Source: Tubulanus polymorphus (taxonomy: Eukaryota; Animalia; Nemertea). Taken from it: a DNA stretch of 64,000 nt. Under the pieces are notes generated by a model. It was not told the DNA's origin. It did not search any database and was given only the letters and a program-made list of their open reading frames with translations. The stretch's first letter is position 1; each line of letters starts with the position of its first letter. The translations under genes were made by a program, and so were the position numbers. Positions 35,258-60,862 of the stretch are shown one piece after another. The stretch lies in contig NC_134026.1 in the NCBI RefSeq assembly GCF_964204645.1, positions 1,821,950 to 1,885,949 of the forward strand, in the 5' to 3' direction.

Positions 35258-36031
35258 ATAGCATTATATATATATATCATTATACATGTATGAAATCTGA
35301 ATCGTACTATAATATAGCGATTGATGAAAATTATACAAGATGACTATGTCCAATGTCCTTACAGAGAAATAAATCTCTCATTGCTGCTTGATCAAATTTA
35401 TGATAACGAATAACTGTAATACATAATATGATTAGGTAGACAAGAACAAGTAAGACAAATCATTTTTTGCTTTCTCGTATCAAAATTTCTCCGTAATAGG
35501 ACAAACTTCTGTGGTAAGATCGAGCAGATCTTTAACCATACCGACTGAAATTTTGGCCAACGCTTCTCTCAGACCGACTTACAGGCTGGAAGCATTTTCG
35601 CCCTAATAAATAACACAATTGAAATAAGACAAAGTTCATGATTTAAAATTGAATATTGACAAGTAAGTTAAATTTACATACAACATAAAATTATGTTTTC
35701 AGAAAATAATATATTTCCCTTATATATACAACTATAGAGGCAAGATAATATACAACTATATATAATCCGTTATCCATATCAATTCGTTACGCACGTTTAT
35801 AAAAAAGACCATATACATCGGATCCTTATTTCACATGCTTGAAACCTATCTCTCCCCGCGCGTCCATTAAAACATTGACCTATGTCGTCCACGTGTCCAT
35901 GGTTAATGCTAAGAGTTAATCATATATAAATACGCCCTCAAATGAAGCTTGAATTGATCATAATTCTAAAATGCTACATTGGAAAAGTACAGCAGCTCTG
36001 AATAGAATAGGCTTTTTTTCTATCTGATTAG

Positions 36032-39000
36032 TTATTCATTGTCTTCTTCAGCTTTATCCTTTTTATTTTTCTCCGCAAGTTCCTTCCATTTCTTCAGATT
36101 GGCCCTATAAAACCAAACGGGAATGATACACATGAGGTACGAACTCAGAATTAGCTCTTTTCTCGATGCTGATCCGTATTACTTACGTAGCGCCATCAAC
36201 CATTGGTTGTGTACCGGGTAAAACTGCCGCCAGAAGCTCATAACATGGCAAACATATCCCCACTATGAATCCGACCTGGAACAAAGTAATACATGATACA
36301 AAATACATGATAACACATGGAATACACCGTTATTGAATTATGCAATAGAACTTCATTACAATGAAATACATTGGACCAGTATGAGTATAATGATATGCTC
36401 CTTTTATGAGAACTTGTTAAAAGTACCTGTGATTCGGGTAATTCGTGTGCGTAAGTACGATCCATCATACGTATTGGCTGTTGTCCTGCCTTCTTTTCCT
36501 CGTCACCCTGTAATCGAATCAGTTCAAATGTACAATTATCGTTAACGACTCGTATATCATTATCATTTCGTCGGTACGATCAGAAGCGAAGACTGTAATC
36601 ATGAATCACAATCAGACGAGTGACTATCGTTAAACTTCTTATATGTTAATACTAATCGCTCACGTGACGAAAACAGTGTTCCAATTTAAAATCACACCCA
36701 CGATGTTGAATCGCGGTTACTAAATAGATACAACTTAACTTAAAAAAACAGATCGAAAAACCATGCAAAGGGTGAATATATTTACAGAAAAACAAAAATG
36801 TGCATAGTGCAAATAAATTAATAGATGACGGATACTTTTTGGAAAGAATAGTTGTGTAAAACACCAGAATATAATGGAATGGAGGGCAATCAAATAGGCT
36901 TTAAACAACAGTGGGTGAATACAACAACATGAAAGAAAGTTTTGGCAATGATACTAAAATTGAAGGAACACTAACTAATTTCACCTAAATCAGAGAAAAT
37001 TGGAGTGTCCTCTACAAACGAATAGAAAACTAATGAAATAATAAAAAAGTTGTAATTGATAAGTATTAAAAATCTGCAAACATGTCTGTCAGTAGGTCAG
37101 CAAATAGTCCACATGTTATTTTGCTATGGCAATACGGTTTACCTGTTGCCAAAATTCTTCCATAATTATGTGTACAACATCTTTCTGCATTTTCCAGGGT
37201 TTATACATAGAACAAAGATCGGCAGCGGTCATGCATAGTTCCATGAGTAGATGTCTAGAAAACAACAATGATAGTCCAGAGATGCATGCGACATTACGCC
37301 ATCCTATACAACCCACCGGTGATAGAGAGGGAGTTTAGAGTTTTTGATTGTTACTGAAGCTGTAGACAAACGGAATTAGGAGACAACGACACAATTCAAG
37401 ATAGACATTTTACATAGATTTAGATTTAGATGATGACGTAGGATCGAATTTTCTGTAACCGATGTAAAAAGCTTCCTCGAACGACATCATTGAGACGATT
37501 AATTTATCAAAGCAACATAGACACAAAACACCTTTTTGATTAGTAATATCGTACAACGTATATATCTGTAAATTCTATCTACCGAGAATTCGACGAATTG
37601 AAATGTACTTTTTCAGACTTTCTCTTATTTCACGGTTAAATGATTTACAATGATATATACAAGACATAGTGGTCAGGAGAGAGGTACAGAAAGGTTTCCA
37701 GTTAGCGATGCATGCGGTGGTATAGCAGAAGGGATTAATCGTAATAAGCAAACTATGCATAAAAAGCGGCAACACCTTCGACGAGATGAGTTATACCTGT
37801 GCATAGAACTCCTCAAAGATTACTTTAACTGTCTCAACCTGAACATCCCAGGGTTTCACGCTGGCGCATAGATCACACGCGGTCATCGCAATGGCTTCCA
37901 GTAGTTTTCTGAGCATAAAGCATCGCAGGGTCATGTATATAGGGAGGAAAGGTTTTCAGGGGGTCAAATAATCCTCGATAATCGATTATGAACACAGAAA
38001 TATAGCTAAAGACTTTGTGGTATGTTGCCAAAAACAGAATAAGTATAGTATAATGCGAACGATTAGAAAATCTGTCCTGAAAATTTGAACATTTTTGTAC
38101 AGTAGTTATGTTAACAAATTAATGATGCAATTATTTAGATGTTAAATTATCAAACTGGTTATCTTAATAATTTACGTATCGGTATTTCACTATTAGAAAC
38201 GAAAGGCAGTTATTTGACGGTTAAATATAGGAATGACAACTTCACTTTTAAGAAAAGACCCATGCATTCTTCAGTTGTGTTATTTCATCTAATTAGCAAA
38301 AGGTAATTTTCTATTGAAGGGCACCGACTGTGTCTAAGAGGATATCACATGCATTTTATAAGAAATTATCTTTTTAACATATACTAGACAATCATTTAGA
38401 ATTTTATTTTTCAAAATGATTTAACTTCCTTGTAATACATGTATTCTTATCGTATTTTATATAATTCAATAAATTCACAGACAATCAGGGATTTTTTTTC
38501 TTAAGTTTACCTGTGCTCTACCTCTTCCCATGAGAAATCAGTTTTATCAATCATTTCTCGTAATTTAGCGCGGTTGCTGAAAAACAGTGCCAAATCCGTA
38601 GCCAGAATGCAGTGCTTGATATCGGACAGCACCTGAACAGACAATCAGAACAATATTATAGAATTATCAATTCTTTTCTGTCTGTTCATCAGTCAGAGGA
38701 ATCAATGAATTATTTTACCTGTTTATATTCGTCTGATGTGAGATGTTTGAATATGTTGTGTCCGTCGTGCTGAAAACGTGAAAGAAAACTTACATCAATG
38801 AGAAAACAAAACTATATTCATAAATTTGAAAAGTAACTTAATGTCGAACGTTCAAAAATCGGCTGAATTTGATTGGTAATAAGAAAAGCGATACTAACTT
38901 AAAAATTTCGAGAAATAAAGATTAATGTGCTTTGCGTAAAAACGAAATGATATTCATAAAAGTATTTGACTATTACAGCGTCAGGCGGCGCACTTAAAAA

Positions 39001-42000
39001 AAAATGGAAAATGGCGATGAAATTTGTTTGTGGGAAAAATCAAATCTTTGAAATTAACATCGCAATTTTCATAAACAGAATTAGAATATACAACTGGAAA
39101 TGAAAAGCAATTGGTAATAATCCCATAACGACAAGACTTCATCTTCATTTTAGTGTCAAAGCAATTCTTGTCAACGATTCCGTCATCGGAATCAGGATTT
39201 ATTTTATCCACCCACGCAGACGTGATTTGCGTGATCTCAACCTATATGGTTATCGAGAGGCAGGTGTCGAAATTCAGTACGCCCGATGAGGGCTCAAATA
39301 CACATTTACTTAAGAACTTTATACACTTTTGGTTGAATTATTGTGGGATTTCATTCGAAATTCTAACGTATTTCAGAGAGAAGATGGAGGTGTTTGAAAA
39401 TGAAAAAAAAATCATAAAATAAACGTGCGGTGTCGTAAATGAAACTGAATATATTTCCCACATAATAATAAACTGGGAAGTGATCGTAACATTACAAAAA
39501 TCTATCTTACTTGTAATATGTTAACAGTATAGTTAAAATGGTGATTCTCCATGGGAGAGGAGGAATATATAGCGGCTAGGGGAGACGCACTTTTCACTAT
39601 AAATGCATTACTTCTCCCACGATGGTCGACATCATGACATAGGCATGCAATAAAGAACGCTATTTGCTGAAATAAGTTAGAATGACAAAGTGGTACAAGA
39701 GTGATATTACATACTATATTGTTGTTAGTGGAGTAGGGGGGTAGAAGGGCGTGGTGGTCTGTATCGGTGGATCTCAGGGGTGATGGTGCGCCGCCAGACA
39801 TATTCCCAGCAAAAAGACATCAAAAATAGATATTTTGATATCCGTATACCAGCTAGTTATTCGTGGGTTGTTGACTGACTACCTGTAGAATAGTGACAGT
39901 TTGGTTGAAATGATGATGTTCCATGGTCGAAGTAGAATAAATTGCGGCGAGAGGAGAGGCACTTTTCACCATGAACGCATTTGTCTTTCCTCTATGGTCA
40001 AGGTCATGGCAAAGACATGCAACAAATAATGCTAGGCACTGCAAGATAATTAGATTAACCATCAAACAACGTTAACGTCCACCAACTTTGAATAAAAGAA
40101 CTATTTCTTTACGCAATGCTCTCGATCATCGAGAAACCTATCTGAAAAAAAACATCATCGAAAAAGAATCAATTTCCTTTTGACCTTTGCGACCGATAAA
40201 AACGCGATCATTTTCACGATGGAAATTTCCTGTACGTACAGACTTCTTTTCACTGACATGTTTACCCTTAATGACGTCACGGAGCAGCTACCCATTCAGT
40301 GGACTCGTGTATAATGTAGAACTAAGAATGAATTTCTATGAAATGAAGTCGTTCGTATGAAATACTCGATAGTTCGTGGTTCTCGTGTTTTCCATATCGG
40401 TTTTCGATAGCGAATACGATACGAACGCAGTGTTTGACCGTTAATTCGTGACAATTCCGAGAACCTTCGGATATTTACGTTAAAAATGAACGAAGTAACG
40501 CGCACGTACCTCTAATGGAGTAAATAAATTTGTCGTTGTTTTGATAACGGTATACATGGCATGCGCCACCGAGAAAGCATGCGCCCAATTATGATAGGGT
40601 ACATTCCGATAGTTCTTCCGTACTGTAAGTGTGAACTTCATCAAACATTCCTTGTCGAATCTACGAGAAAGATTTAGAGTAATCAATGAAACTGGTATCC
40701 GTGAAAACGTCAGTTTTAGTTCCAACGTGAAAATTTCTTATTCCATGCAAAATTCCACGTAACTGCAAAATAATATCATCAAGTAAAACAAGATTATATT
40801 TTCTTTCCGAACGAATTCAGTTGACTTAAGATGGGAATATTTCTTATCGAAATATCGATAGCACTGAAAATCATAACCCTTAATTTATCTTTCATGCTTT
40901 TTATACGAACAGATTAATGGTGCGTAAAACGTATTAAGACTCAGTGAAAACACAGGAAAACTCGACACGATCTGAGACTAATATTTAACATCGAACTATT
41001 TCGAATAAACAATCGTTCACTACAAGAATGTGTCTGAAAATGCGCATATGTATATAATTTTTTGTTGTATTTCAGTTTGAAAAAAATCACAGCAAAAAAA
41101 CAAGAAATCAAAACCGATACCATATGATGATATACGTATATATAAATGTGTCAAAGAATATATCATGAACTCTACGGAAGGATCGAGGTTAGGTTGAAAT
41201 TCAACGAGTCGATAAAGTTGAAATCTACTATAAATGTTAGGTGTGGACTGCATTTATCTCATCAAACCATTGAGATATAGGATTATGCTCTGGATTTCTC
41301 GAAGGACGAATTGAAAATCTTCATCTTCGTCATAGAATGATAGAAAGAAAATCAGAATTAGAAATACCTCCACCGAAATTAATTGTGAAATAAATGTTAG
41401 ACGATTGGTAAAATTTCTGAACAATTGGATGACATACTGAGATGTATATACATACAATCCCCTAGATTTGTACGAACTACACGCATCGCTCTTCCTATTT
41501 TATCAAATAGAATAATTCGATTCAGGTTTCTCCAAATCACTAAAATCTATATCTACAAGCAACAGATAAAAAAAACGCCGGGAAAATATTTGAAAGAAAA
41601 AAACCTCAGCCACCGTGTTATGAGAAATACTGTTAGCAGTCGACACAGAACTAAAGTAACCTCACCTCTTGTCAATAGGGAGCGATTCAAATTGCTCCGC
41701 TCTTCGTTTTGAAGCACTTAGAATGAAATAAAAACGGTCATGAGAATCGATGTAAATCCCGAATAAAGAAATGCTCGAGAGCCCGAAATAAATCACATAG
41801 AAAAATATTCAACAAAACATTAGGCAGAAGAGAACGTTCATAAAATGTGTATCTTTTTTAGATATGATATGATATCCTACAATGAAATGAGAAAGAAGCA
41901 GTCCACACCTCTGGCTTTCTAGAAATAAATTTCGGATAATCATTATAAAAAGGTTAAGATGATATAGAAAGTCCGGTGTATATAAGGCTATATACCTTGT

Positions 42001-45000
42001 ATCTGTATCTTTTAAACTAATGCTAAAAGAGAGAAAATGTCCAATCGTGTTAATTGGTTTTCTGTGTTATTCCACTGAAATCCATCGGAAACATGATCGT
42101 GACAGTAATTATTAGCTATATCATCTTCTACAGTTGCTTACGTAGGTTATTTCAGGAAATTATTTATTTCAATGGAGCAGCTTTTTACTCGGGTTACTAT
42201 CGTAAATCACTAGTAATACGATAGGCTTTGTTGTCGTAACGGGAATTAACTAATGACAAATTTATTTTTACCTTTGTAACTTGAACAAATCTTCAAACAT
42301 ATGAATAACGACAAGCGGCTTATCGTCACCGTCTATGGACCACGGCGAAAATTCATATCTGCAAACATGAAATACGAGTACAGTTGAAGTTGAATACGCA
42401 ATATTCATTATATTAAGACATTAGTGTATTTTGAATATCTTACTCTTGTAGATGTACTATCGATGACGGCAAATCTCTTGTTTTTAATTTTTCCAACTCG
42501 TCCTCCGAACACTGGCTGTGATACGACAGAACCTCCAACGCTACTTTATATTTCTGTTCCGATCGCCGAATCTTTTCGTACAGCTATGAAATACAAAATC
42601 GAACACTCGTCGTACCGAACGCCCAACTCGCTATACGAGGGTTTTTATCAGATTTATTCGGTTACCTTGGCATGATGCAGCGCTAGTCCACAATAAATGG
42701 CAAACGTTTCGAACGAATCTTCATCAGCGATCGTAAATTTACCGTTTAGTTTATTCACCATTTGAACGACGCCAATTATACTGTAACGATAGATCAACAT
42801 CCATACAGTAGCAGTTTAATCGTGAGTAACAGGGGCCAGTTGCATAGTCGTGACTTAAGTCCAAAAGTGGTCACAAATCTTTAGACTGGTCTTAAGTTGT
42901 TAGATTGGCTATAGAACTAATTTGGTCTTAGACTGGTCTTAAGTCTAAGCCATGACTGCGCAACCGGCCCCTGAAGTCGATTTTCAATTTTCAATCAGAA
43001 GAATTAGAAATATTTTTACCTTCCACGTATGTATATAGGCATACAAAGTATCGTATTTGTTGTGTAACCAGTCTGAAGATCGACATCTCTGAAATGACCA
43101 GATATCATTGTCACCATATTCCAGGGACAAGCAAAGATACACGCTCACATACGGTAGATAATCTTCAATTAAACCCCGATTACCGGTTAAATCTTCCATT
43201 AGTCCCCTCGTCTTACCGGTTAAATCTTTCGTCTTGATAAGCATCGGGAATATTCAACGTTTGTCCAGTCGAAGCTACGTGACCGGCGATACCTTTATCA
43301 ATCGGAAATCTGAATTAGATATTGGCAATCAATTAGTTAAACTATATCATCATCCTTTATTAGAATTGATAACTGTATATTATCTTTAAAGGAATTTTTG
43401 ATTTAATCATTTCAAATGCAAACACCAATGAATTTCCTCTTAAAGAGAAATTGATGAAATATAATGCATTATTGCTATCGAGGATATTGGAGTTGAAGAT
43501 GATCTTTGTCGTAATGAGCTTCGGTAATAATTGTCACTCGTCGCCGCTAAGCAGACTTCAGGCAACTCTTCATTATACATGGGCGATCTATGAAATTTGT
43601 TTGATATCTCTTATCAAATATTGATGCGGCGGTAATAATTTCCGTGAATCGACTGTAGTGTGCAATCGGTGCAATTAACGCGCACTGAATGCGAATCGGA
43701 GAGTTTTCCAGGAGGCATGGATGACGATGATTTCTGTACAAACATAGTTATAGAAATGACAGCGAAATTACGAAAGTAACATAAACCAGTGCATACAGAG
43801 TACGAAGAGAGATAGCTTTAGGTAAAGGGATCCACCGTTCCAGAGTAAATGGAGTTGAATAATATATGGTTTCGAATTGGTTTCAGGATCCGAGAATGAA
43901 ATTTCTATCGAATTTAGTTATTAGTTTCATTCTACGGATTTGCGAGGTTGATTTGACAGGGATAGATTATTCATTATATATCGAAAGAATTAGCGAACAC
44001 AAACACACGTAAAGAGAATCAAAATAGATTACAAAATTAAATCCAGCAATAACTGTACACTTGATCAAAAATACATGTATTTTTGACTAGATAGATAAAG
44101 AGGGATAGAGCTTTCACATTGACGCTAATGAGAGATAATGCAAACAGAACAAGTGTTCAGTATAGTCTGCAACCTGTCAAAACGTGGGAAGGAGTCTGCG
44201 AAAGAATTTTAAGTAATCAAATATTAATGAACGTATAATATTCATGAAAGCCAAATATACGAACACAACAGTGCTTAACACGAGCAGTCATTGTGATTTT
44301 GATACCGTTATAACTGAGTACACCAGCACAATATAAACTTCTAACGGACCATGAATACAGTGGCAAGTGGCTTGGTTTTGGGCATGAGGCCAAAACAGAT
44401 TAGAAAAGCGATCGTGAAACAGCCCCTAAAAAGCTTAGTGCAAGCAATGCGATTTAGCGTGCTATAATACGTGCAAGTCACCATAAACCATGAGTTAAAT
44501 TTTCAGCAGTCAATTAAATACATCAGCAATTCACGTGTGATTGAAGCTGTTCTATTGAATACAAGCCAAATTGATTACGTGCAAACTTTCAAACCTGATT
44601 TCTTTGCCACAGTCTGGTATGAAATCAGTATCATCTATACTACCAGTATCAAAGATCCTGGCGTATAATTCCATGGTATTTATGTCAACCAGAAACAAGG
44701 ATGCCCGGTCAGCATGTACTAATGTTTTAGCGTAATTCTGTGAAAAAGAGAACACACCACAATCCACATTTAAAATGTCATGCAACATGCAACGTACACC
44801 GCAAAACCGTTGTGATGATCGGCCGTTTTGCCGATCAATTTCTGGGATTTTCATCCCCACAAATTTCAAATACGTATTGGAAAAGGTTTCGTGATTTTTT
44901 GCTGATGGACAAAACCAAGTTTCATTGAAAAATGAATTATTGGCCCAAAGTTGGAAATGAAGAAAAAGCATGCTGAATTTCTCGGCGTTTCGATGACTCT

Positions 45001-48000
45001 TTTGACGAACGCTTTTTAATTAGCGACTCAGCAAATCGACATCTTATGCATAAGACATGGGCAATAATCGATAGGATTTTGAAAACAAATCCATCGAGGC
45101 CCTAATCAGTCGCCAAGGCAACATGGTTCACGTTGGGCATCATCATCAATATTGGTCAACGCAGCAGTCAATAAACGAGTTCTTTTCTCAATTCAGTGAT
45201 TAATATGCCGCGGTCATATTGAGACCTGAGCAATATCTCCATTAGGCTTTCCATAAATCTCAATTCAACCTGTCTGATGAGACACTCATTAAATATATAT
45301 ATGATTCTACTGCCGATACCCCAGCCCCGCGACGACAATGACCTTGACACCCCCAACGAACGTAATAAGTAGATTGTAATCAAGTAGACGCAACTAATTT
45401 GTTTCTTCGTGCAAAACAATTCACCAAAAAAGCATTTTGTAAACAGCAAGCAAGGGTGCATGCAGCTTGCTCCGTCACACAATGCCGCCTTAAACGCAGT
45501 GAAAACCTGGAATTCACACGTAGAGACAGTTGGGTTGAAACACTGAACGGATCATCGTTAGAATTCCTCGATATTAGCGAGACGAAAAATGAATCGAAAT
45601 TTTAGATTCTAACCCTCAAAAGAACAGCAGAGGCGTGATCACTTCTACTTTTCTACTTCCTAGCGGTAATTCTCTTGTAGTGTGTGATTTCAACAGAAAA
45701 GTCTCTACGCTAAGGTAACATTGAACGAGAATTTCTACCTTATCTCTTTGTGTTGGCTATCAGCAGGCTGAGCACCCAACCCGTTACCAACATCAAATAT
45801 TCTCGCATATAACTCCCTAGATACGTTGTCTAGTAGGAATAAAGATGCTCTATCTGCGTTCACCAACTTTTGAGCATAGTTCTGTAGCATTGGGCAGAAA
45901 TCAATCATAAATTTACAATGATATTTAATGGCAACCCTTATAAATTTTTGAAAACATAATATATATAATATATAATATATGATCTGAATTGGCTTCGTAC
46001 TATTTTGAAGTCAAACTTATTATCGTATTTTTCAATTACATCTTTTCCGAATTTTCAATTCAATTTTCTTCTGACGAAATATATGCGACTTACCATAATC
46101 TTCATGATCACCGTGTCCATGCTGACAATATCTTGAAAGATCGACCTAGAATTAAATGAAAAATTAGAAAGACGCGGCAAAACCTATCGCGCATAATGAT
46201 AACAGTAATTACTCTTCGTAAAGCAAGGAATAATGACATGATGTTATTAGTCACGAATGTCGTTACAAAGACAAGCTGCATGCACATAGAACTTATTTTT
46301 GCTTAGAAATATATCGATAAGACCGAAGCGTTATTTCTTACTTTGTCACCGCTAATAGGAAATCATTGAGTTTCCGTTGTTTCGTCATGCTGTGATACAT
46401 CTACAAAAAATAAACATTGACAAACGTACATTACATTCGTAATGTTCATCGCAATAACGCATTGACAGAAATATCATAGTTGCATCGGTGATAGAACTAC
46501 TTTATTAACGATTTTCATTTTGATATCAATTTCTTTCAAGACGCGTAAAAAAATGAATACTGAAAAGGCACTGAATTTTACAAATTGACAAATTAGACAA
46601 TATGTCATGATTTCAACAGTATTTTTTGATTTGAGAAATATAGCATCAATCAATAAGGAAGCTACAATCGAGGGCCAGATACCAGTAAAAGATTATCTTT
46701 ATTACACGAATTTATATATAATTCATAAAAATTTGAATTAGAATTCCTGAAAAGAAATTATGACGGAAATTTCTCTGACTTTACCAAAGCATTACCAACG
46801 GCATTACATACAATGAATGTAGCAGACATGCGATAATTTATCTAGGCTACTAAATTCAACGTTACAAGAAAGAGTTGTTAATAAAACAATAGTGCACCGA
46901 GAAAAGTCATTGATTGAAAAGATTAGATGTTTTCTTTTTTTTGTTAGAGTTTACTATAATAGTTAGACATCAGCGTTTACTTAGTTCCAAAGTTTTCATC
47001 GTTAATTGGGTGAAATATGAATGTAAGCGATGGGAGGTTATGTGCACTTCATGGACTGTGTGAAAATCATATATCTAAGCATTATATCACTAAGGACGAA
47101 CCTCATTGTCCATATAATTCTGAAAGTGCCAGCAGCAGGAAAGGCAAAATAACAGGGAACTTATTAAAAATCCCAACTTATATCCCAAGTAAAATGAGCA
47201 AAAATGTAGAAATCAACTTCGATAACCCATTATGAAAAATTGATAGTCAATGAGAGTTGGTTTATGTGGCTCTTATCCCGAGATGACAAGATCTTTTACT
47301 CTATAATAAACCCCTCGTACTAAACTATAACTACTGTAACAATGTGCAGTGTAGTAATCATTACTAAGATATGTTCTCCGTTGATTTCCATCGGAGAAAA
47401 ATAAGAAGTCACAATATCGTACACAGAAATAGATTGCCCGATTCGGAATTCTAAGGTGGCAATAGAAGAAGAAGTTGTACACATTGCTAACACAAGATAC
47501 GAAAGAAGCATGCAATAGTATACCTCCGCTAAATGAACCGTTATACTCCCCCATATCAGAAGGCTGCTGCATATCTGGTCAGTAAGAAACATAAATATAC
47601 AAGCAAGCAATTAGTGTCCAAACACTTGAGAGTATGATGTATGATGCAGAAAAAAAAGAAGCTGTCTCGGGACCATGTCAACCGATTTCAATCACTTAGA
47701 TTTAAAAAAAAATCATCCATTTTGGGAAAATTTGGTATGCAGGAAATAATAAATTGAGAGACCATAAAACCGAGCGAATTCAAAATTGCCCCAACACACA
47801 AAAATCTGATTCCAAAATGCCACGTCAACATAGAACATAAAAAGGATATTACTCCCAGCAGAAAAAAGCGCATAATGTCAACATTGAATTGCGGTTCAGC
47901 ACAATTTCGACGCGTTCAATGCGAGCAGGTTTGCTTAGAGACAGGTTTCTAGATTTCTCCTCACAACGACATGTTGAATTATACGGGTTGAATTGAGTTC

Positions 48001-51000
48001 TGCATACAAAATACCGTTGAATTTTTTGAAACTTATTCCACCAGAAATTCAATTGTTGAATTGAAATTGATTGTTTATATCCAGATCATCCAGGAGACAG
48101 CTTCATTTTTGCATTCTAGTGAGGATCGAAATTGTGCACTGAATTAATGTATTCAGAGTAAGAGGGAATCCACGCCTGGTTGACTAGGGATTAAGCACCG
48201 GTCTCCACCAATCCCTGACTGACCATAGATTTTTTTACCTCGGCACACGACACTGCTACATTTCCCCAAACAAGATAACTGCTGGTAATCTAGAAACAAA
48301 TAAGTTTTATCAATGCTATCTAATGTATATTACTGACAGTCAAAACCACGGACAATATTGTTCAACCTCGCTCAATTAATCTGTAATGATATTATTACCT
48401 TTCACACTGCATTCGCTTTAAAAAAAAGTGTTTATTGGAATATATTCCTGTTGAATAACTATGAACTAACCAACAGTTTTATTTTTCCATCCGTGGCATT
48501 AACTATGAACTCGAGAATGACAGGTGAACGAATGCAGGGTAAAATGTAGAATTAATTCGTTGTTAATGGTAAAAATAATAAATTTGATAAAAAATAGACA
48601 TATTACAAACAGCATTATATTTCATTGCAAGCCCAAAGTTGTAATAGTTTGTGATAGGCTGATAGCCTGGCAAAAATGAGAGACAGCCATTTTTTACTTG
48701 ATCGAAGGAAATTCATCCACGAAACCATTAAAATGATACCATTAGAGACCGCGAGTTTATTTTATCCGAAGTTATCAATCATTTTCACCGCAAGCCAATC
48801 AGACCTATTTTGTAATATAGGATATAAAGGGATCCCGGACACCGGCTGAGAGTGTGATGTGTGGGGTGATTGAACGTTGCAGCATTGCAATTTTTACCTC
48901 TTCACATTTTAAAGCTAAATGACTCCATAATAAATGACTGGCTGCCACCTACAGATAAATTCATCAATTTCTAAAAGAAATTTTCTCCCAGAAAAATTTA
49001 CGGTTGCAAATAAATGCACTCTTTAACGTCATCGGTTTATTAATTTTTCGTGTGAATAAAGAAAACATCACGAAATTTTAACCATAGGATCAGTTTTATC
49101 GGAGGTGGAATGATTCAGAACAAATATCTATAAATATATATACATGTCGAAAAATTATAGGGTCAGTGTGAAAGATGCTAAATAAATGTGAATCGCTCGA
49201 GAAGATGTTTCAAACAATTATGCGAATCGGTGGAATGTTTGTTTTCATCATGGTATTTATACCCGGGGTAAAATGAATGCGACCTTTTGTACGTGACGTT
49301 TTATATCATTGGTTATTTGTCTCGAATGATGAGTGGCGCGCGCCGGACGTGATTGCCATTAGGCAAACGATCAACCAATTACTGCAATTTACTGAATTTA
49401 ATTCTACGCGAATTCCAAGCCATCAGGTTTATTTTTGAAAAAACGAAACCAACTCGTCTGTGTATAAGATGTGCATCGTGCCGACCAAAACGGCGATGAA
49501 AATGCTCAAGTTCACGTAATGATTAATAGTTATAATGTAAACATTCATTGTTTGTAGACCCGGCAATACACGAAAATAAATATGGCTATTAAAGACAACA
49601 GGCATTTTAGATTGCGGTATCCATTGCATTCATATAATACGGCTGTAGCCCGACTACACTGAAATTGCCTGTTTGTAGGAAATGGCTGAAGAAAATATTA
49701 TATTTGATATCAAATATCAAGGACGTGAGGACCGACCTCCCTGCAAATAACAATCATTCGGATAAATCTCATAAAACGGTCCACAGCGACGAAGCGTTGG
49801 TAAATTCGTAAATTCGAATTTTTTTTGTTCGAGCTAAATCTGAATTTCCTACCTCTTCATCTTCTTCGGCAAATGCAGCGGTTCCGACGTTTCTGTACAG
49901 TTCTACCACACCTGATTTATAACGAATATAATTCAATATAGAACAAATACAATTCAATTTCGGGGTTTGACATATATTGCTGCATACAAGAAAAGATATA
50001 GAAAAGTTTTTAAATTTTTCAATATTTATCGATGTGAATTTCATGTTTTTAAAAGCTCACCAACGACTTGTCCATTAGACTGAGTAATTGGTTGCGCTAA
50101 TACTGTTTGTGCATGGTCACCCCCGATACCAATCCCTTCTGGAAATCTTTCATCCTGAAATATCACACGAACTCATGCAGTCAAATAACTATAAATACCA
50201 CGGATGATACTATATTTAAAATAAATGATAAATGGTCTGTGCTCATATTTCACTAATGATAAGTCAGTCACTCACTCCTAGTATTTCACTGGTGCGTATA
50301 GTCTCTTTAGTCGTAGCTACGTAAGCCGACAGAGTCGTTCCTTTTCCTAGTTTTCTCGAAGAAACGGCACCACTGAAATTAGGTTGGTTCTTCTGATTAG
50401 ATATAGGATACGCAGTAACTAACTAATACTTGAGGTATTAATGATGTAGTGAATATAAATGATGATTCCGCGAACTCATTAATGAGTGGTTGTCATATTT
50501 GCATCTAAATGATCAAATCAAATAGGCAATTCGTTTTAACATTATGCTATCCTCTCGGTGTAAACTTACTCTTTCGAATTCGGATTAAAATGTGATATCG
50601 TCTGAAAAAGAATTGAGAAAAGAACTTAATTTCCGACTCGAAAAATATGACCGGAATAAACCGAAAACATCCGAGATGATGCATGCCTACCTGGCCACAG
50701 TCATCAACAAGATATAAATTGTATCCATCAGCATTAATAGCTGCAAAACAAAAATGATATTATCTGTGAAATGTTTGTACTACTTTTAAGGGTGAAAATG
50801 ATAATGGCTTGCAACGTTATTATTTACCAGCCGCGACACAGCTAACCAGTTCATTGAGGACTTGAGCTTTATTTTGATGTTGATGAATATCCCTCGTCAA
50901 TTCTTGAAGCATTTTTCGTTTGTCGGCGTGTACGCAGAACTAGTGAGAATATTATACAAAAATAACCAATTATCTGTGTAAAAACAGATCCACATTGACT

Positions 51001-54000
51001 TTGACTATGATCATCTTACCTTCCATTTTGATAAGCTAACCCTCCTTTCTTCTTGCGAATCGATTTCTGAAATATGGAATTTATTTTCAACTAAGGTCGT
51101 AATGTTTACTTATTTCTTCATGAAAATGCACGATATCCCGATGTGGTTTTACAATAGAGATACATAAACGGCATTCGAACTGAATACTTACGAGATAATG
51201 TGTTTTCTAGGCCATTTTTCTGTTTAGCGTGTTTTTGATTGTGAGTCCGTCGTATTAGCCAACGTTCTAATTGTTCTATAGCTACATTTGATATGAGATA
51301 TTTTTCTAAGAAGTCCGGATTTTCATTGAGATACGCTGTCACCAGTTCAGGACTCAGGTCTGTAAAAACAAATCGTGTTGTTGAGTATCTTTAAGGTGCT
51401 AAATCATTTTAAACTTTAAACTTCATAAAACATAGCGATTATATCACGTTTCAGTCTGAAAGCTCTTTATTCCGATTTTCATTTTCGATACGAAACATTG
51501 ATTTGAGTGAATACACATTTGGAAGCAATATCTACAGATGAAATTACATCCCACATCCCATGTGTCAGGTTTCATTTCAATTCTCATAATGCAGCATCAC
51601 CCATGAGATTTCAGATTTCGATTTAACGTATAATTAGCACATATACCTTATGATGTCATGAGTTTCGTCGGTAATTCAAAACTCATATACACGCATTGCC
51701 TTTACATTTCGCAATTAACTACTCTTGTTGCGTAAATCGTCTATGTTTGAGGTGAAATATTTCAATTTCATCTCGATAAAAAACAACAAGACCCAGTTCC
51801 ACAGTTGTGAGTTAGAGTTAACTCTGAGTAAAAGTTAGTTCATTTTCAATGGGTTTACTCAGAGTCAAATCTTAACTCGGAACTGAGGAACTGGACCCAG
51901 AAATATATCTTAAATTCACTTCTCGAAACCAGTTTACTACGGCAGGAATATGATATCTGAAATACCTATTATCAATTTTTCAATCTTAATGGCCACAAAC
52001 GATCTTTTGGAATTTTTCATGAAGATCGCTAATGAAGGATTAAGGGACCTCTAGAATTTTAGTCTGCGTGTGAAGAAATTCGTCTGTTGACAGATTGTCA
52101 TATTAGCAGCAGTTACGTATCGATTCTAGTAGAATATAACAACTCTTGTGATCAATCACGATTTCACCTTCTTAAAAGGTTAAATTCACTACGCTTGTGG
52201 AATACATCAGTTTTAGCTTTGGCGAATTCTGTGAACAATTCGAATCTTGAATAAGTTTGTGCCCAAACTGCAGAACAAAACTAACCTTGAACGTGAACTT
52301 TAGAATTCCTGCGAGTAGAAAATCGCCCCAAGCAAAAACAAGCTTTTAAAAGACCATCACAATCGTAACCAGCCATATCGTATTATCTGAACCAGAACTC
52401 GCCGCTTCTCATTCTTATTAATGATAATTAATTGATATCCGTGAGACGCCAACTACGTTCGTACTATATATAGTTCATTTACAGTGCACGTATTTGCAAC
52501 CACACTAGATCCATCCGGACACAATTCTGAATAATTTCACGTATATATGACATTCTAATACCATCTCGGCTGCTGCTGCTAGTTTCAAAGGTCTGATAAT
52601 TGACGAAGTAATAGACGCAGCTTCCAGCTAAACAAGAATTCGAATGTACATACACACACCGACATACGCAAGTTTATACATACTAGATATATACACATAC
52701 AACGGGCTCTAAATATATTCAGTAATTTCAGGTATCTTATCAGTCCACCAAGAGGCTAGAGAGTTCAAATACCAGCTTTAAATAAATGCCGACTAATAGC
52801 AAATAACTGATCATAAATCTGCGAAAGAAAAATAACTACCCGGTAGTTTTTTATTTTACTTGATCGTTTAATTAAAAGATGGTCGTTTTAGAGAATAATT
52901 TCTTAACGAACTGTGACTGTTGTCGTTAATTTGCTTTTACTTACCATTCAAACTGAGTTTCCTTTTAATACCCGAATCAAGTTTACAATTGTTAGAATTT
53001 ACCGCGGCAACTTGTTCCTTAATTTCCGTCATTTGGATGGCGCTTCCAGAACTCATACACTGTCCCATTATATATCCGTCAGACACCGGAGCCCTCCCTC
53101 CTAATCCGATGCCAATAACCGAAATTCTATAATATATCCCGATGCGAATAGTCACGTATAATTCCTTCGTTGTAGCTGATTTATGATGTTTATCATTTAC
53201 TTCCTTCTCATCGGTAGAATGATGATCATTAGAAATGTTTGTCTGTCATGATTATATTAATAAGAATATATACCGTTACACGCATATAGAATATAGATGT
53301 GTGGTCACGCCTGCTCTGCAAGAGGCACTCGCGTCAGTCGAACCAACACAACGGCGCTTCATTAACTGACTTATCCTTACCAACGTAAACTGTGTCCAGT
53401 AAATTACTTGTGCCAGTCCGTAATATTGTCATTATTAATATTGATATATGTCTAATATAAACGTAGTGTGAAAGATAACAATATTGTGACCAGCGCAGTG
53501 AATCTAGCTGATAACGCGCTTTGATAATAGTGTCCAGCTATTGACATTCCGGACGTATCAACTAATCACCAAGTCTCCAAACGAGATTTACAGATCACTC
53601 ACATGATTATGTATAATACATCAAATTGAATCTCATTCCTCACGCTCAACTTAAGCTATATCCAGCAGCGTCCCTCGGTGAATAATCAGTTCCTTACTTC
53701 GTCAACAGAAAGATTTGGTAAAAATGTTACCCGTAAAATGCCATCGTTGCTGTGCTATTAATCCCACATCTATTAAATTGCGCAGAAAGTTGGATTTAAA
53801 GTATCGATTTAACTCTGGGGTTCTATAATCCGCATGGCATCACTCACCATGGTAATCCCCTCACATCATAAACACATTCGTGCATGTTTTATATTTTATT
53901 AGATTTCGACTAATACTCGTTATTTAACGCTTCACGCGTTTCGCGATTGTATCAATTTAAGAACTAAATGCAACAACAGATGGCAATAACAAACCTACTG

Positions 54001-57000
54001 AGAGATGAGAGAAAAGAGAGGCGATAGACGTAATGTAGATGGAACGTAATAAAAATTCGCCCAGTAATCATAGAGATCGGCTATTGCGTTAACAAGAACT
54101 CGGCGTAAAAAAAAATCTAATGTAATAGTAACCTTTTAGATTACAACACGTGTTCATTGCAATTATGGTGAATAATGCCCATCAATTTCGAGCTACTGAA
54201 TAAATCCTACGCTTCAAAGTCGAACATACACATACCCAAAACGTGTAGAGATTTATTGAAGAAATGTGAGTTTAAGATTTTAGAAATGTTAGGTTTGAAT
54301 TACCCAGTAGGTAGCCATGGACGAAACTGTTTTGTGGCCATTCTTAAATTTTTCTAAATATTTATTTTCCTGTTATACGTTTTATCATTTGAATAATGTA
54401 TGGTATCGTTTATGATAAGTAATTCGAATACTTACTATTGTTATTATCATGGTCTATATCGTGTCTACCTCGTCGACAGTTCATGGCAGACAGAACTAAC
54501 GCTAAAGCATTCTGCATCTGTTATTTTAACTATCCAAAGTATGTTTGAAGTATTTAAAACATGCGGGTGATAAATTCCAAATCTCGCTGCGCAAAAACTT
54601 CAGTTTTATTCGATTTAATCCATTATGAAACAACAAACAAATTTGACCGAAAAAAAAGTAGTCGAATGCAGGATTAGAAATAGTCGTATCCAGACGGTTT
54701 TTGGTATACACAGGTGTGTATTTCAGTGCTTTAGTTTTCTATAGCGTTGTAATTTCTATATAGAAATCGTTACTGCTCAGGTTATAAAGATCGTGTAGCG
54801 TGACCTGCCACAGTGACGCAAAACTTGCAGCGAATCAGTGTACCATAACCGGCTTATTCCATAAACAACTATTTGTGATTAAATCAACGCATAGGCTATC
54901 CGCAAATGATCTCCTTCATTATCATAACAATTCCTGTAAACGTCGCAAAGCATTTCACCCTTTGAAATACGTCAGAGAAGGCAGTTTATTTTTGGGTATT
55001 TATTTTTGAATGTGAAAAAGTTTTCGAACTATAAAGACCATAAAAAAAGAGAATCGTTATTATCTGATATTCGCGACCATTCAGTCACAGTGAATTAAAT
55101 GTTAGTGTTTAAAAATGCCAGTCAAACACAATATCTAGAATATAAATGATTCGTTTTGCAAGAGCCCTGACCTGAATTACGCGCACCTTCGAAATGAGCG
55201 TTAAAAAAAATAAAGAAATCGTATCAATCGTTTGTATATGATAAAAAATGAAATTGAATGACAACTTTCTGGTTGATTAAATGGATTTATGCCAGCGGAG
55301 ATATCGGGTTACTGATCACATGGCACATTTACACGTTCTGACGTTCATGCCCTATCTATTAAATGACCTATCCGGACTCGAGTGCAGCGGATCCCGAGAA
55401 TTACAGCACCAGATGTGGAATTGTCCGAAATCTTCGATTATAAACGTTGCCATAACAATCGATCTCAAATGATATAACAAATTATCAGATATTCCCTTGA
55501 CGGAAAATTCAAAACAAAAGCACATACCCCCCCCCCTCCCCCAATAAGCCGTAAAATTAGCACATATCCATCAGGAATACAATGGAGGGTGCGGTGATTC
55601 ACTTTGGAAGCGAATCAATGACACTATAAATATGTAAATAGACAATTTCCTGAAGCGCTTCCAATTTATGATGAATATTTTAATCAACGATGAAAAAACC
55701 TAGAAAATTGATATGGCGCGGTAAACTGCAAATACGCGCCAAAATAGAAAAATTGAGTTATCGGTCTTTGAGTAAACTGAGAGTGCCAGTGTTGTGTGTG
55801 CGTGTGTAGATTCCGCTTTCCTTGTGTAATTATCGGAATGAAATCATATTTCAGTAAACCCTGAATACAATTCAATAAGAACCAGACTGAGACAGACATT
55901 TTCCACAGACAGACAGATGAACAGGTTTTTTTTCTAATTTGTTTGCGATATGACTAATTTCCCACGGTTTCAATAGTTCTCAAATAATAGGAAACAATAT
56001 ACGCTCGTTTTTCAGCTGGAAATGAAACTGATTAAGTGTGATTACTACGTCGAGTTATATTGAGTTGATATTTTTGTGTACTACGTCATCAATATAGGGG
56101 CTAGACTGGTTACCATCTAAATTCAAAATATTTTATCCAAATCATCTTATTCATTGTCGACATTATCAAGCGACATATATGTACGTTATTTTTCAAAGCA
56201 TCAATAAACTTTCAAATTAGTTTTCTAGTTATGCGTCATTTCCGATCAACCGATATGATGTCGGCTTTGATCGATCTGATATATCCGGCTAAATGGACTC
56301 CTAATGAGGCGACGATACCTGTACAAAGAAAACACTACTGTCTGGTGTTATCTTCAATTACCACCTACGTCATCAACTCATTCCCGCTTATAACGCCCTC
56401 GTTTCCTCAGAACAACCATTCTCTCTATACATGCCTTCTTTAACCCGAGTTGATTTCCACGGATTGATGCCTAAAATCTACTGTTTCCTTGTTTTGCAGC
56501 AACCAACACATCCATTTCATCTCGAATATCACTATTTTCCTATTTTTTTACTACGTATTTAGTCCGGGTTCGCGAAGCCCATTGAGGTATACATCTACAT
56601 TTGGCTTTTCTTCACAGATCCGGCCACATAAAACTGTACAATCATAATATATAATCGTGTATTGTTTGTAACATCTTGTACGGTAATAGATAGGCTACCT
56701 ATCAAATTTGTTAATTTTCGATTATTCAAATCAAGTTTTAACTACAACGGTGGAGCAGGATCTGGATACCATACATTTGCAATTTTGTAGCTCGGGTGAC
56801 GGTACATTCTAGTGTGCTGAAGGACGTTTCCAAGGTCAATGATGTAAAATCAAAGGTTTGAGAGAGAGGATGCGTCGTTCCACAAAATATAATGATTTAT
56901 CGCGTTCTTACTCATTGACCGTAAATATAATGATTAATAAGACATCCCTTCGCGCTTCAATGGACATTAATTACTCAAAAGCCACGATTCCGTTGCTAGG

Positions 57001-60000
57001 AATAAAATTTTGATGATGAATGATCGCCTTGGAGATTCAGCGTTCCGACAATTGCAGCTATCAAATAGGGACACGTGAACCGTATCGGTTTTGGTGGAGA
57101 AAATCACGAATCTTTCCCCAAACCCGTTTGAAATACTTCCGTTCGAATGATTTATGGGAAATAGTGAAAATCTTACCATTTGAAGTCATTGGACGGTTTT
57201 GGTGACTTCCGTTCAAATGAGCGTATGGCTGGCCTGAAAGAGACACATCAATAAGCAGTCAATATCACCGTCTGGAAAGTGAGCGCTCTATTCAATAAAG
57301 CAATAATCAATAAGTGTTACCGCCATTATCCCATCCTGCAAAATCATTAAACAGATTTATTACCGAACGATAGAAAAAAACATATGTATTTCTCGCAATA
57401 TTATCATGAAAAATAAACTCGTTGTTATCATCGTTAGTAAAATCAAAAACCTGGGATTCATGAATCGTTATTGCACTCATTTCACAAAATGAATATTAAA
57501 TACAGGTCGCATTAAAGAAACCCATGTCAAACGAGATGAAAAACAGCACCGTGAGGTTGTGTGTATATGTCTTGTTATCAATTAATCAAATTGGGTATTT
57601 GATGTGTTTTAGTAGAATTAATTACACCCGATGAGTACGTGTTATTACGCACATCAGAACCACCCACCGGTAGCAGACTCTCTACTTAGTTCGGCAATAT
57701 TTTTGCTCGTAAGAAAATGAACGCGTTTTACTGAGAGTTTCCGTTTGCGCCCTTTTGAGTTGTATACGTGGATACTTCGATGGACTGAAATATAACGTAA
57801 ACGGTTGTCGTTTAAGCGGCGAAAATTAAACTGAAACTTATTCGTCAGTTTGGAAGATAATATAACGACACTCGTCTGACGTTTAAACCACTCGACTCTC
57901 GGATTCTTTCCATGTCCCGGTCAAGATGATCACTATACATTAAGACGACCGGCTAAGTCCCGGTCTCGACTACGTGGATTACATCGCCCATCAGCGTCGT
58001 CGTGGGAATTGGATGGAATATTCGATTTCCATTTTATATATCGAAAACCTGTGCGCGTGATGTATGTTGTATAAATGTACTAATATATACATTAAGAATC
58101 TGAATGGATACTTCTTGAGAGTTCAATGATGAATGCTAATCAACGTCGCGAATTCCATTTACGTCGATATGAAAGATGAGAACCTTTAACAGACGAGATC
58201 CGTTTACTGGAAACCTGGCAGCTATTCACATTTAAAGCTGTGTAGTAATTTCCCTAGCGTGATTCTCTCATACAATGAGACCAGTACCTGGATAATTATA
58301 CACGTCAGATGAAAAGTGACACGTCGCCAATAGCCATCGGAATAAATCTGAATTGGATCTCGATTATCTTTGCCTCTCGCACGGCGGATCTCATTTTGAA
58401 CTATTTTACACGCGCCTATAGTCATATGCATAATCATAAATATTCAAAGCCTTAAAATATGACATACACACAGGTACCAAAATAGACTCATAACAGTATT
58501 GTATTTATAAATGGCCTGAGAGATATAGGCTTTACGTGTAGTTTTGATCAGGTGAATGAACAAGTGTCTAATAACGCTATACATCGGGCGAGAAAGTAGA
58601 AATTCAGAAAAGAAACGATGACCTAAAAAATAACCCTCATTCAAACATCAAACTCAGATCGCTTTCATTAAGAAACCGTGGAAACGATTGTCATCTATAG
58701 ATATATTTTGCTCATAGCCACGAATGGGTTGATTCTTTGTTTGATTTTTTTTTTTGTAATGCTTTCGGGACGATCATTTCAAAACATCAATAGGTAAACG
58801 CCATTAACAGCGAGTATTGATGTCGTTTTGGCCGAGTTTGCCGTTGAAATTAATTTTGAGTTAGCAGCGAACATGTCAATATCAGTGACCACATCGCAAG
58901 CGCGTTGCGGGTTTATATCCATTGTGATAAAATTGATGTTTTTCCTGATCAATGCCAACCGTCAATAAACATTACCGGCGAATGGTTACTGTCTATACTT
59001 GATCAAACCATTACAGAGAGAGATATATCAACTCTCCCCTGGGGTATACCGTAGTTATGTGTTTTCCTAAAGGGACATATCGTTACAGAAGGAAGATGCG
59101 ATTCAGATATACGTAACATCTACATACACCAAAAATGAGTGAAAACAACCACCGAATGTAAAACATATGAAATATCGAAAATATCAACGACAAAATGATA
59201 TCCGACGAAACATTTCAAATTTTTATGAATTTCAGGGAATAACGTGAAATAGCCTAATTAGCATAATTATGATGATAAATATCGCGCGATTATCTGATAT
59301 ATAGATATAGTAATCCTACCTTATTGCGTCTGTTAATCTCTGCAAGCGTCGTATATAGACAAGATCGTTCGAACAAATACGTCTATATACGTGTATTTTC
59401 AGACGCAGTTTATTTATGGAGCTGATGGAAAAATATAGTACAACTATACTATCGATTACTGGTATTTGCAATATATATATTTGTATATATATTTATATTT
59501 TGCTCATAAACATTGACACCGTGCGACGGAGAAAGATGTTTCAATCTACGTTCGAGCAAATTCGAAAGTTTCGAGGGTTACATTCTCAGAATTGTATTAT
59601 CGGAGAAATTTAAAACTACGCTCAGTTGAAAATGTGTTTGGCGCCAGATATGCTACTTCCCATTTGCGCATTTTACCTGTGCCATTTCGTTGCCACTTCA
59701 AATAGTTTTTTGTCAACCAATTGGCTTCCGTAATTTATGTGAATGAGTATTTGGACGAGGGGATGACTTTCTCTAATCCTTTTGTAAACCAAAAATTTTT
59801 TTTACTGTTTTTTTTCAAGATAATTGATTTGTGAATACTAACTATACAATAAAGATTACTTTCAAGATATTATTCGTAATATCGTATTCATTATAACGAA
59901 GATAATTCATATTGAATATGAGTATTCATTAACGGTATATCTGAAGCGAAAATGGATATAGCGAATCGTCGGCTGAGGGTTTGGAAGATATTTATTTCAC

Positions 60001-60862
60001 GTGTAAAAGGAGGAAATTATAATGAAAACGTAAACATGCCGCGTAAACGACCATAATGACTAGAGTACAAACCGAGCCAAATGTAAATATGAAAACCAGT
60101 CTATATTTGTTAAACTCGACTAAATCTTGGCCGTATATATGTAGTATAAATATACCTTCTTCACTTCGCTAGTGAATTCACTTGGCAATTCTATGTTCAT
60201 TCTGATGTAATATATACGTATATAGGCAGAATTGCAGAATTGCAGAATTGCCATGACGTACGAACGAATTTCATTTTAGATGCTTTTACGTAGTTGGAAA
60301 TGTCAAATGAATCAATAAGGTTGCGATATAAAGCCGTTGATATAGGTGTCTATATAATAGACATTCGTACACGGGTAAATAACAAGAAAATCTGCGAAGA
60401 AATCATTTCGGGGCATGCTCCCCGGTTACTATAGAAACATGCACAATACAAAGGTAGCAGTACCAGAGCGCATCGAACTCCAATAAAATTCCCGCAATAA
60501 TGCTTCAATCAGTTGTAAATTTCACTTGTCTGTTTAAAAGGTACATTTAGAAATGAATAATATATAATTTCAACGTTCAGTCAGCCATCTATCGATATCA
60601 AATGTTTACATCGTTTAGATTTGCGATGATGGCATTAGTTCGATTTACCTTTTCCTTTTATGACCATTCCAGTAGAATCAATCCCAGATCGGCTTACACC
60701 TTTACCGGATCCACCAGATCGTGAGCTGTACGTGCTTCTCATGTATGATGGACTACCCGTTTTTAATACGTTCCGCGACGGCACAGGGCTAAGCAGCTTA
60801 CCAGTTACCCCCGGCAGCGGAGGTAGTCGTCTAGAATTTATTTGCCGAGCAGGGCTAGACAT
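36032..60862 (-). CDS. PDE10A: GAF-GAF class I cyclic nucleotide phosphodiesterase, PDE10A-like (C. elegans pde-5 type); more than 25 exons with alternative exon clusters
   Basis: N-terminal [21 protein letters not shown]...LERWLIRR resembles the PDE10A N-terminal segment. GAF-A: [13 protein letters not shown]: [67 protein letters not shown]...F...DE. Catalytic domain: [44 protein letters not shown]. Stop codon at 36032-36034. Confidence 0.92.
37143..37254 (-). CDS. PDE alternative substrate-pocket exon, copy B (112 nt)
   Basis: ag|[38 protein letters not shown]|gtaaac, phase 2 to 0. Confidence 0.9.
37797..37908 (-). CDS. PDE alternative substrate-pocket exon, copy A (112 nt)
   Basis: ag|[38 protein letters not shown]|gtataa, phase 2 to 0. 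Confidence 0.9.
39511..39666 (-). CDS. PDE alternative HD-motif exon, copy B (156 nt)
   Basis: ag|[52 protein letters not shown]|gtaaga. Confidence 0.9.
39883..40038 (-). CDS. PDE alternative HD-motif exon, copy A (156 nt)
   Basis: ag|[52 protein letters not shown]|gtagtc. Confidence 0.9.
41996..42022 (-). CDS. Candidate 27-nt PDE microexon (ISLKDTDT)
   Basis: Strong acceptor TTTTCTCTCTTTTAG and donor AG|GTATAT. Phase 2-2 matches the host intron and there is no stop codon. Confidence 0.5.
42830..42973. mobile_element. MITE (~144 bp) with ~28-bp imperfect TIRs
   Basis: CAGGGGCCAGTTGCATAGTCGTGACTTA versus the reverse complement of the right end, CAGGGGCCGGTTGCGCAGTCATGGCTTA. Related copy at 10314. 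Confidence 0.85.
44595..44737 (-). CDS. PDE alternative GAF-B exon, copy B (143 nt)
   Basis: ag|[48 protein letters not shown]|gtttga, phase 0 to 2. Confidence 0.9.
45739..45881 (-). CDS. PDE alternative GAF-B exon, copy A (143 nt)
   Basis: ag|[48 protein letters not shown]|gtagaa, phase 0 to 2. Confidence 0.9.
47524..47574 (-). CDS. PDE alternative GAF-A C-terminal helix exon, copy C (51 nt)
   Basis: ag|[17 protein letters not shown]|gtatac. Confidence 0.8.
48239..48289 (-). CDS. PDE alternative GAF-A C-terminal helix exon, copy B (51 nt)
   Basis: ag|[17 protein letters not shown]|gtaaaa. Confidence 0.85.
48898..48948 (-). CDS. PDE alternative GAF-A C-terminal helix exon, copy A (51 nt)
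   Basis: ag|[17 protein letters not shown]|gtaaaa. It has the same length, phase and S-x-L-x-W...E pattern as copies B and C. Confidence 0.8.
51788..51900. mobile_element. MITE, same family as 35142-35257
   Basis: GACCCAGTTCCACAGTTGTGAGTTAGAGTTAACTCTGAGT...GAACTGGACCCAG is nearly identical to the 35142 copy. Confidence 0.85.
52945..53068 (-). CDS. Alternative first coding exon of the PDE, N-terminus MGQCMSS
   Basis: ATG at 53068 opens [19 protein letters not shown]...LSLN. The phase-1 GTAAGT donor is compatible with the phase-1 acceptor at 51359. Confidence 0.7.
57177..57233 (-). CDS. 57-nt internal exon of the long PDE N-terminus
   Basis: tctctttcag|[19 protein letters not shown]|gtaaga, phase 1-1 and in frame with the flanking exons. 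Confidence 0.65.
60649..60862 (-). CDS. Distal first coding exon of the PDE ([18 protein letters not shown]...)
   Basis: Open S/G/R-rich frame with a phase-1 GTAAAT donor at 60648 and an acceptor at 60987. A further donor at 61443 suggests a non-coding exon near 61444-61600. Confidence 0.65.

Follow-up and report, generated by a model that had tools for sequence, protein, structure and literature searches.

Tandem exon copies that replace one another in the mature mRNA are known from several animal genes. In coq-2, mutually exclusive exons a and e swap part of the substrate site of an enzyme; the pair is known from both annelids and molluscs (Tan et al., 2020, PMC7434440; Alvinella COQ2 in PMC12403961). 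Insect Mhc, 14-3-3zeta, and MRP1, together with Dscam exons 4 and 9, provide multi-cluster exclusive exons with downstream docking sites (PMC6071210). Isoforms of phosphodiesterases (PDEs), by contrast, have been portrayed as varying chiefly at their ends, each gene having a single catalytic pocket; in vertebrate PDE10A, which has at least 18 splice variants, most of the variation lies at the N- and C-terminal ends (PMC12571622). Here, a 64,000-nt stretch of the genome of the nemertean Tubulanus polymorphus (contig NC_134026.1, positions 1,821,950 to 1,885,949; herein referred to as the window) was analyzed. It carries a pde-5 gene with nine exon copies in four tandem clusters, herein named A, B, C, and D. 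With good confidence, though short of certainty, we regard it as a PDE10-type gene with four old tandem exon duplications, the B and D copies of which are used singly in gene models and likely form two nucleotide pockets. The initial annotation of this DNA, which had proposed four mutually exclusive clusters yielding 24 core variants, was partly upheld: the exclusivity of B and D, the conservation, and the effect of D on the pocket stand, but the exclusivity of A, the tuning of the metal site by C, and the 24 variants do not.

The gene is located on the minus strand, is rich in introns, and is represented by 13 RefSeq models of T. polymorphus pde-5 (XP_074640627-640), the proteins of which match the window exons residue for residue. 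Like vertebrate PDE10A (2OUN, 2ZMF), it encodes two GAF domains and a catalytic domain. The tandem GAF domains before the catalytic domain were confirmed by the families PF01590 and PF00233, both listed for protein P0041, and the predicted fold agrees. The class I PDE signature HD[LIVMFY]xHx[AG]xx[NQ]x[LIVMFY] (PMC6436744) was found in both C1 and C2. In a comparison of catalytic-domain chains, PDE10A chains scored about 295 bits and PDE5-type chains at most 242 bits; full-length PDE5A, PDE2A, and PDE6 chains outscore PDE10A only through their longer chains. Exon B1 matches the PDE10A GAF-B structure 2ZMF, with no match to other PDEs. The predicted catalytic fold matches PDE10A 2OUN with a template modeling score (TM) of 0.91 and also matches PDE2A and PDE6. 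Judged by chain scores and the GAF-B match, the gene appears nearer to PDE10A than to other PDE families and is placed in the PDE10/pde-5 orthologue group. Its NCBI name is pde-5, and nematode PDE-5 is given as the PDE10 orthologue in PMC6436744.

All nine exon copies have AG/GT ends and contain no stop codon, and the copies of each cluster share length and phase (Table 1), as expected for homologous mutually exclusive exons. All 24 joins that take one copy per cluster are open and give a frame of 808 amino acids. Thus, the nine intact exons of the initial annotation were confirmed in ends, length, phase, and frame. A whole-window search with profile hidden Markov models built from relatives returned exactly three, two, two, and two copies for A, B, C, and D, respectively. 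The residues common between copies number 4-9 of 17 in A, 26 of 47 in B, 39 of 52 in C, and 18 of 37 in D; silent sites between copies are saturated or nearly so. The exon duplications are real and old. An assembly artefact or a segmental duplication is an exceedingly improbable source of the copies. Positions 35800-42859, with the two C and the two D copies, are spanned by a contig of run X1 that departs from the window at 40 letters; since these duplicates are present on a second haplotype, an artefact is rejected for C and D. Of the 40 differences, 39 are listed, and none is located inside the four C and D exons. For the locus as a whole, the same explanation is opposed by the other exons, each single-copy in the window by tblastn of one model, as the initial annotation had noted in excluding a segmental duplication, by flanking introns alike at only 13-23 of 60 letters, and by orthologous copies in other phyla.

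Table 1. Position (within the window), strand, and character of the gene, its duplicated exons, and the predicted intron stem of cluster C.
Feature	Positions	Strand	Length and phase	RefSeq models	Remarks
PDE10/pde-5 gene	36032..60943	-			tandem GAF domains and catalytic domain; several alternative 5' starts
A1	48948-48898	-	51 nt, 0-0		helix from GAF-A to GAF-B; closest relative copy in Lineus, 10/17 identical
A2	48289-48239	-	51 nt, 0-0		12/17 identical to one Lineus and one Owenia copy
A3	47574-47524	-	51 nt, 0-0	model X6	top BLOSUM match is the Owenia third copy
Microexon	47102-47119	-	18 nt	model X6	follows A3
B1	45881-45739	-	143 nt, 0-2	2/13	first GAF-B strands; type common to deuterostomes, arthropods, and cnidarians
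B2	44737-44595	-	143 nt, 0-2	11/13	lophotrochozoan type
C1	40038-39883	-	156 nt, 0-0	13/13	HD metal motif and loop behind it; default copy
C2	39666-39511	-	156 nt, 0-0	0/13	unannotated; under purifying selection
D1	37908-37797	-	112 nt, 2-0	1/13	substrate pocket; type common to arthropods, cnidarians, and Trichoplax
D2	37254-37143	-	112 nt, 2-0	12/13	substrate pocket; spiralian type
Stem, 5' arm	39786..39801	-			predicted, -28.5 kcal/mol; intron between C1 and C2
Stem, 3' arm	38979..38993	-			predicted; candidate downstream docking site

Eight of the nine exon copies (all but C2) have an exact letter match in RefSeq proteins. None of the 13 T. polymorphus models holds two copies of B, C, or D; for B and D, this holds at the level of models, not of reads. 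In an in silico frame test, B with zero or two copies runs into a stop at amino acid 318 or 368, and D at 704 or 745, so only mRNAs with a single copy of each would be expected to survive; A and C stay in frame with zero or two copies. Among the fetched proteins, 3 of 369 contain two B copies and 2 of 368 contain two D copies; every one of these is a non-RefSeq prediction. At the level of models, frame, and conservation, B and D behave as mutually exclusive exons.

Additional data on usage come from run X2, which has no record as RNA and the spliced nature of which is shown by its joints: 8 of the 15 joints listed, out of 45, span CT..AC introns. The joints 38769/39883 and 40038/40510 use C1, the former skipping C2, and D2 is used in the joint 36506/37142. 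Contigs of X2 extend over the bins of B1 and B2 as well; uncovered bins and contig depths were left out of the ranking of copies. Some of these data tell against the interpretation given here. RefSeq isoforms are automatic models, and their counts are not abundances and are uninformative on coupling between clusters. No C2, D1, B1, or B2 junction was found among the 15 of 45 X2 joints listed, which are contig-level data, and the use of cluster A is documented at the level of models. Runs X3 and X4 were discarded as RNA support, with no spliced joint among those listed and with introns covered too. A C1-carrying X2 contig that appears to end at the D and B boundaries was likewise discarded as a sign of alternative use, an intron-covering contig overlapping one of the boundaries.

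The D exon holds the metal ligand Asp674 (numbering from PDB titles). Among the 11 active-site residues that PMC12571622 lists for human PDE10A, five are encoded by this exon, namely V678, T685, A689, I692, and Y693, and their spacing was checked on the human sequence. At these positions, D1 has S, Q, V, I, and F, and D2 has M, Q, V, I, and M. Thus, unlike vertebrate PDE10A, the window gene has no Tyr693 in the selectivity pocket but Phe in D1 and Met in D2. The five residues together with PDE4D pocket offsets (PMC6436744) give eight pocket positions, counted gap-free from the metal Asp and not by direct alignment. D1 and D2 differ at four of the eight: 677 (Ala/Ser), 678 (Ser/Met), 688 (Thr/Val), and 693 (Phe/Met). 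This is in agreement with the proposal that cluster D alters the substrate pocket. In total, 19 residues differ in one 37-residue segment. In the D tree described below, Met at 678 was found in 32 of 34 rows of the D2 group, and Met at 693 in 33 of these 34 rows and in 1 of the 66 others. Such a fixed contrast suggests two distinct pockets. The exchange of D1 for D2 would likely shift affinity, turnover, or the preference between cyclic adenosine and guanosine monophosphate (cAMP and cGMP). An on/off change of substrate is not expected because the metal aspartate and four of the eight pocket positions are unchanged.

The other swapped exons affect other parts of the protein. A encodes a 17-residue piece (residues 271-287) of the long helix that leads from GAF-A to GAF-B (residues 266-311 in the predicted structure), and B encodes the first GAF-B strands, as seen from the match to 2ZMF. 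Enzymes of the PDE10 group characteristically hydrolyse both cAMP and cGMP, with cAMP bound by GAF-B. In human PDE10A, C287 and D305 are described as GAF-B ligand contacts (PMC6151459); the equivalent positions are Ala and Asp in both B copies, which diverge at the residue immediately after and in the loop that follows. C1 and C2 carry the same HD..H..N motif and the same metal ligands, and the suggested tuning of the metal site by cluster C was not borne out. These shared metal ligands and ligand-contact positions, together with the four unchanged pocket positions of D, would fit copies that are swapped yet functionally near-equivalent and are kept for expression or stability and not for catalysis. 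We find this rather unlikely in view of the type-specific pocket residues, Met 678 and Met 693, being fixed across phyla.

The nearest tested analogue is coq-2. As in coq-2, a tandem exon pair swaps part of the substrate site of an enzyme. Unlike coq-2, where a single cluster brings about a substrate switch that has been tested, the window gene has four clusters and encodes a signalling enzyme. The class of mechanism is well known, and a PDE that swaps its pocket exon is without description in the literature searched. Those searches yielded no account of exons that are duplicated or mutually exclusive in any PDE, PDE10 included, among sources that excluded subscription papers and bioRxiv supplements and included papers available in part; tables of genome papers could list the gene. 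The term "mutually exclusive" is absent from the first 300,000 of the 708,272 characters of a PDE review (PMC13095499), and the supplement of a catalogue of human tandem-duplicated exons (PMC8373072) contains no "PDE" rows, with CACNA1C and PKM present as controls. The D1 and D2 catalytic domains form a natural pair for testing which pocket positions set the cAMP/cGMP preference. The swap of a pocket-lining exon is also relevant to the annotation of cyclic-nucleotide signalling in molluscs and echinoderms, the isoforms being unremarked in RefSeq.

The two D versions are kept across nemerteans, molluscs, and other spiralians. Of the lophotrochozoan genera, 18 had at least two fetched proteins; both D types were found in at least 11 of these, both B types in at least 7, and several A types in at least 15. 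Both types of B and D recur in molluscs and Lineus. No bivalve genus (0/10) has both B types, B2 being the only one among the matches listed. In Owenia, three A-like segments find their best matches, judged by identity or by score, in A1, A2, and A3 in that order, the match to A1 being weak. Outside the lophotrochozoans, all seven echinoderm and hemichordate genera with at least five proteins swap two D exons. A single D type was found in Penaeus (15 proteins), Periplaneta (6), and Branchiostoma (15). Both copies are conserved, with weak orthology for C2, and the expectation that the copies recur across phyla holds for types D, B, and A in other lophotrochozoans and for the D swap in echinoderms and hemichordates. 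A D1-type exon followed by a D2-type exon, both of 112 nt with AG/GT ends and in the same order as in the window, was found in L001. The same sequence (L001:967-2755) contains a C exon identical at 51 of 52 residues to the named bryozoan protein P0410. A rotifer-like PDE10 locus (L002:10381-11254) has two D exons, both of the D2 group, which suggests a separate duplication; a 20-bp intron stem surrounds its first D exon (0/200 shuffles). Short inserts occur at the place of the 18-nt microexon in Lineus, hemichordate, and echinoderm models.

In a D tree of 37 columns and 100 rows (after removal of 5 near-identical rows), D2 belongs to a spiralian group of 34 rows (99/97), and the derived copy of the ambulacrarians to a group of 8 rows (97/95); the bootstraps of this tree were unsettled and a better tree was missed. 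A tree that holds the spiralian and ambulacrarian second copies together scored higher and was not rejected (approximately unbiased test, p 0.62), so that the second D copy may have had one origin or two. In the B tree, the grouping of the B types (98/79) is partly circular, the B labels having been set by a motif inside the aligned columns. As a speculation to which we give little weight, the exchange of the PDE10 pocket exon may be a switch between cAMP-preferring and cGMP-preferring (or fast and slow) forms that arose in the bilaterian ancestor; chordates and arthropods would have lost it, and spiralians, echinoderms, and hemichordates would have retained it.

Cluster A behaves differently from B and D. 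A1 and A2 are joined in 9 of the 13 models, A1 stands alone in 2 and A2 alone in 1, and A3 with the 18-nt microexon is found in 1. Thus, cluster A was not classed as mutually exclusive, and the claim of exclusive clusters holds for B and D (frame, models, and conservation) but not for A. Two joined A copies were found in the models of Tubulanus (9/13), Saccostrea (9/15), Patella (6/10), Mytilus (4/24), Dreissena (2/3), and Elysia (1/1). Cluster A is likely leaky: it stays in frame and lacks a stem of the kind predicted for C (see below), and it would contribute one or two 17-residue pieces to the helix between GAF-A and GAF-B.

It might instead be supposed that all four clusters are strictly exclusive and freely combined, giving the full 24 variants, and that the A1+A2 models are annotation artefacts. 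The openness of all 24 joins is compatible with this, and the nine mollusc-like proteins from transcript-sized Logan contigs each carry one A copy (two joined copies in 0/9), so that co-inclusion of A copies may be rare or a habit of modelling. In structure prediction, the A1+A2 helix is kinked, with predicted local distance difference test (pLDDT) values of about 49-59 as against 65-83 for the A1-only model; with two copies in only 6 of the 73 alignment rows, a mostly single-copy alignment could itself cause the kink and low confidence, and such models cannot settle whether A1+A2 is native. Strict exclusivity with 24 variants seems to us quite improbable: two-A joins recur in models of Tubulanus and five mollusc genera, models of Mytilus, Ostrea, and Crassostrea skip A altogether, and C2 is absent from all 13 models. 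Only four one-per-cluster combinations are modelled, one of them with the added microexon, and the claim of 24 real variants was not supported.

No model contains two C copies, and C2 was seen in neither the models nor the X2 joints listed. Cluster C is probably mutually exclusive with its second copy suppressed. C2 has kept 39 of the 52 C1 residues along with the class I motif and its two splice sites; the proportions of nonsynonymous (pN) and synonymous (pS) differences are 0.14 and 0.82. In neutral simulations, run 5000 times for each of three distances, 39 of 52 residues were never retained. This comparison, a selection check of the kind proposed earlier for each copy and run for C1 and C2, indicates purifying selection on C2. 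Two overlapping contigs, L003 and L008 (111-nt exact overlap), contain two tandem 156-nt C exons with AG/GT ends, the second of which has the HDVDH form, as in C2 and an annotated Owenia exon. The tree joins C2, the second L008 copy, and Owenia weakly (92/56, on a long branch).

The alternative that C2 is a silenced, decaying copy and that three clusters work is consistent with the lack of expression evidence for C2 (0/13 models, skipped by the X2 contig), with its branch of 0.59 as compared to 0 for C1, and with the second C type being absent from the models of every genus among the fetched proteins; its loss of use may be recent. A C2 query against longer proteins gave two matches among three candidates, neither a C2 orthologue. 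Decay of C2 nevertheless appears doubtful, as the open frame, splice sites, and catalytic motif were kept despite saturated silent sites, as no simulation reproduced this retention, and as a second C copy occurs in the same order in L003 and L008.

Suppression of an intact C2 would be explained by the predicted stem of cluster C (Table 1). Fifteen intron pairs were compared with shuffles: two outperformed all 60, and 13 did no better than the shuffles. Both top pairs, in clusters C and B, connect the between-copy intron with the one that follows the cluster, so that the second copy is looped out. On retest, the energy of the cluster C stem was matched by 0 of 1000 shuffles, and in the fold of the C region the stem helix and a nested second helix are present in both the minimum free energy and centroid structures. 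This arrangement would correspond to a downstream docking site that pairs with a selector behind the first copy, in cluster C only. The GC-rich stem would loop out C2, so that C1 would be used by default and C2 only rarely, in particular cells. Such a geometry, a stem from the between-copy intron to a downstream intron with the second copy looped out, is described for Mhc, 14-3-3zeta, and MRP1 in PMC6071210 and is predicted here for cluster C and weakly for B.

The window gene differs from these docking-site genes in several respects. Cluster A is not exclusive in models. The best second partner of the C docking arm, a candidate competing selector at 39297-39274 behind C2 (-19.4 kcal/mol), is only suggestive, being matched by 14 of 200 shuffles. 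The C stem was not found at the distant L003/L008 locus, where 132 of 200 shuffles were as good. The stem around B2 was equalled by 4 of 300 shuffles and is not significant over 15 comparisons, and no standout stem was found for A or D among the 15 intron pairs compared with shuffles. Steric exclusion was ruled out, the introns between copies being 216-1001 nt long and the AG-free zones 26-104 nt.

Several other features of the gene were observed. Alternative 5' starts are annotated on the minus strand at 60943-57192 (X1-type models), 54517 (X12), and 52376 (X11), so the N-terminus is variable too. An unannotated candidate first exon (52945-53068, minus strand), found in none of the 13 RefSeq models, starts with Met-Gly-Gln-Cys and has a GTAAGT donor whose phase matches that of the next exon; we presume that this start resembles a lipid-anchor motif. 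In the catalytic domain, two non-homologous cassette exons are located on the minus strand at 41666-41716 (51 nt) and 41996-42022 (27 nt); models use one alone or skip both, and run X2 skips both. An alternative donor at 39880-39883 (minus strand) lies 3 nt beyond C1 and gives 12 of the 13 models one additional Val; the X2 joint fits the shorter form. In model X13, an alternative terminal exon (36991-37011, minus strand) follows D2, and the protein ends ahead of the last catalytic helices. A very high-copy element at 42830-42973, with 14-nt inverted ends, 37-nt internal units, and a depth above 100,000 in run X1, looks like a miniature inverted-repeat transposon.

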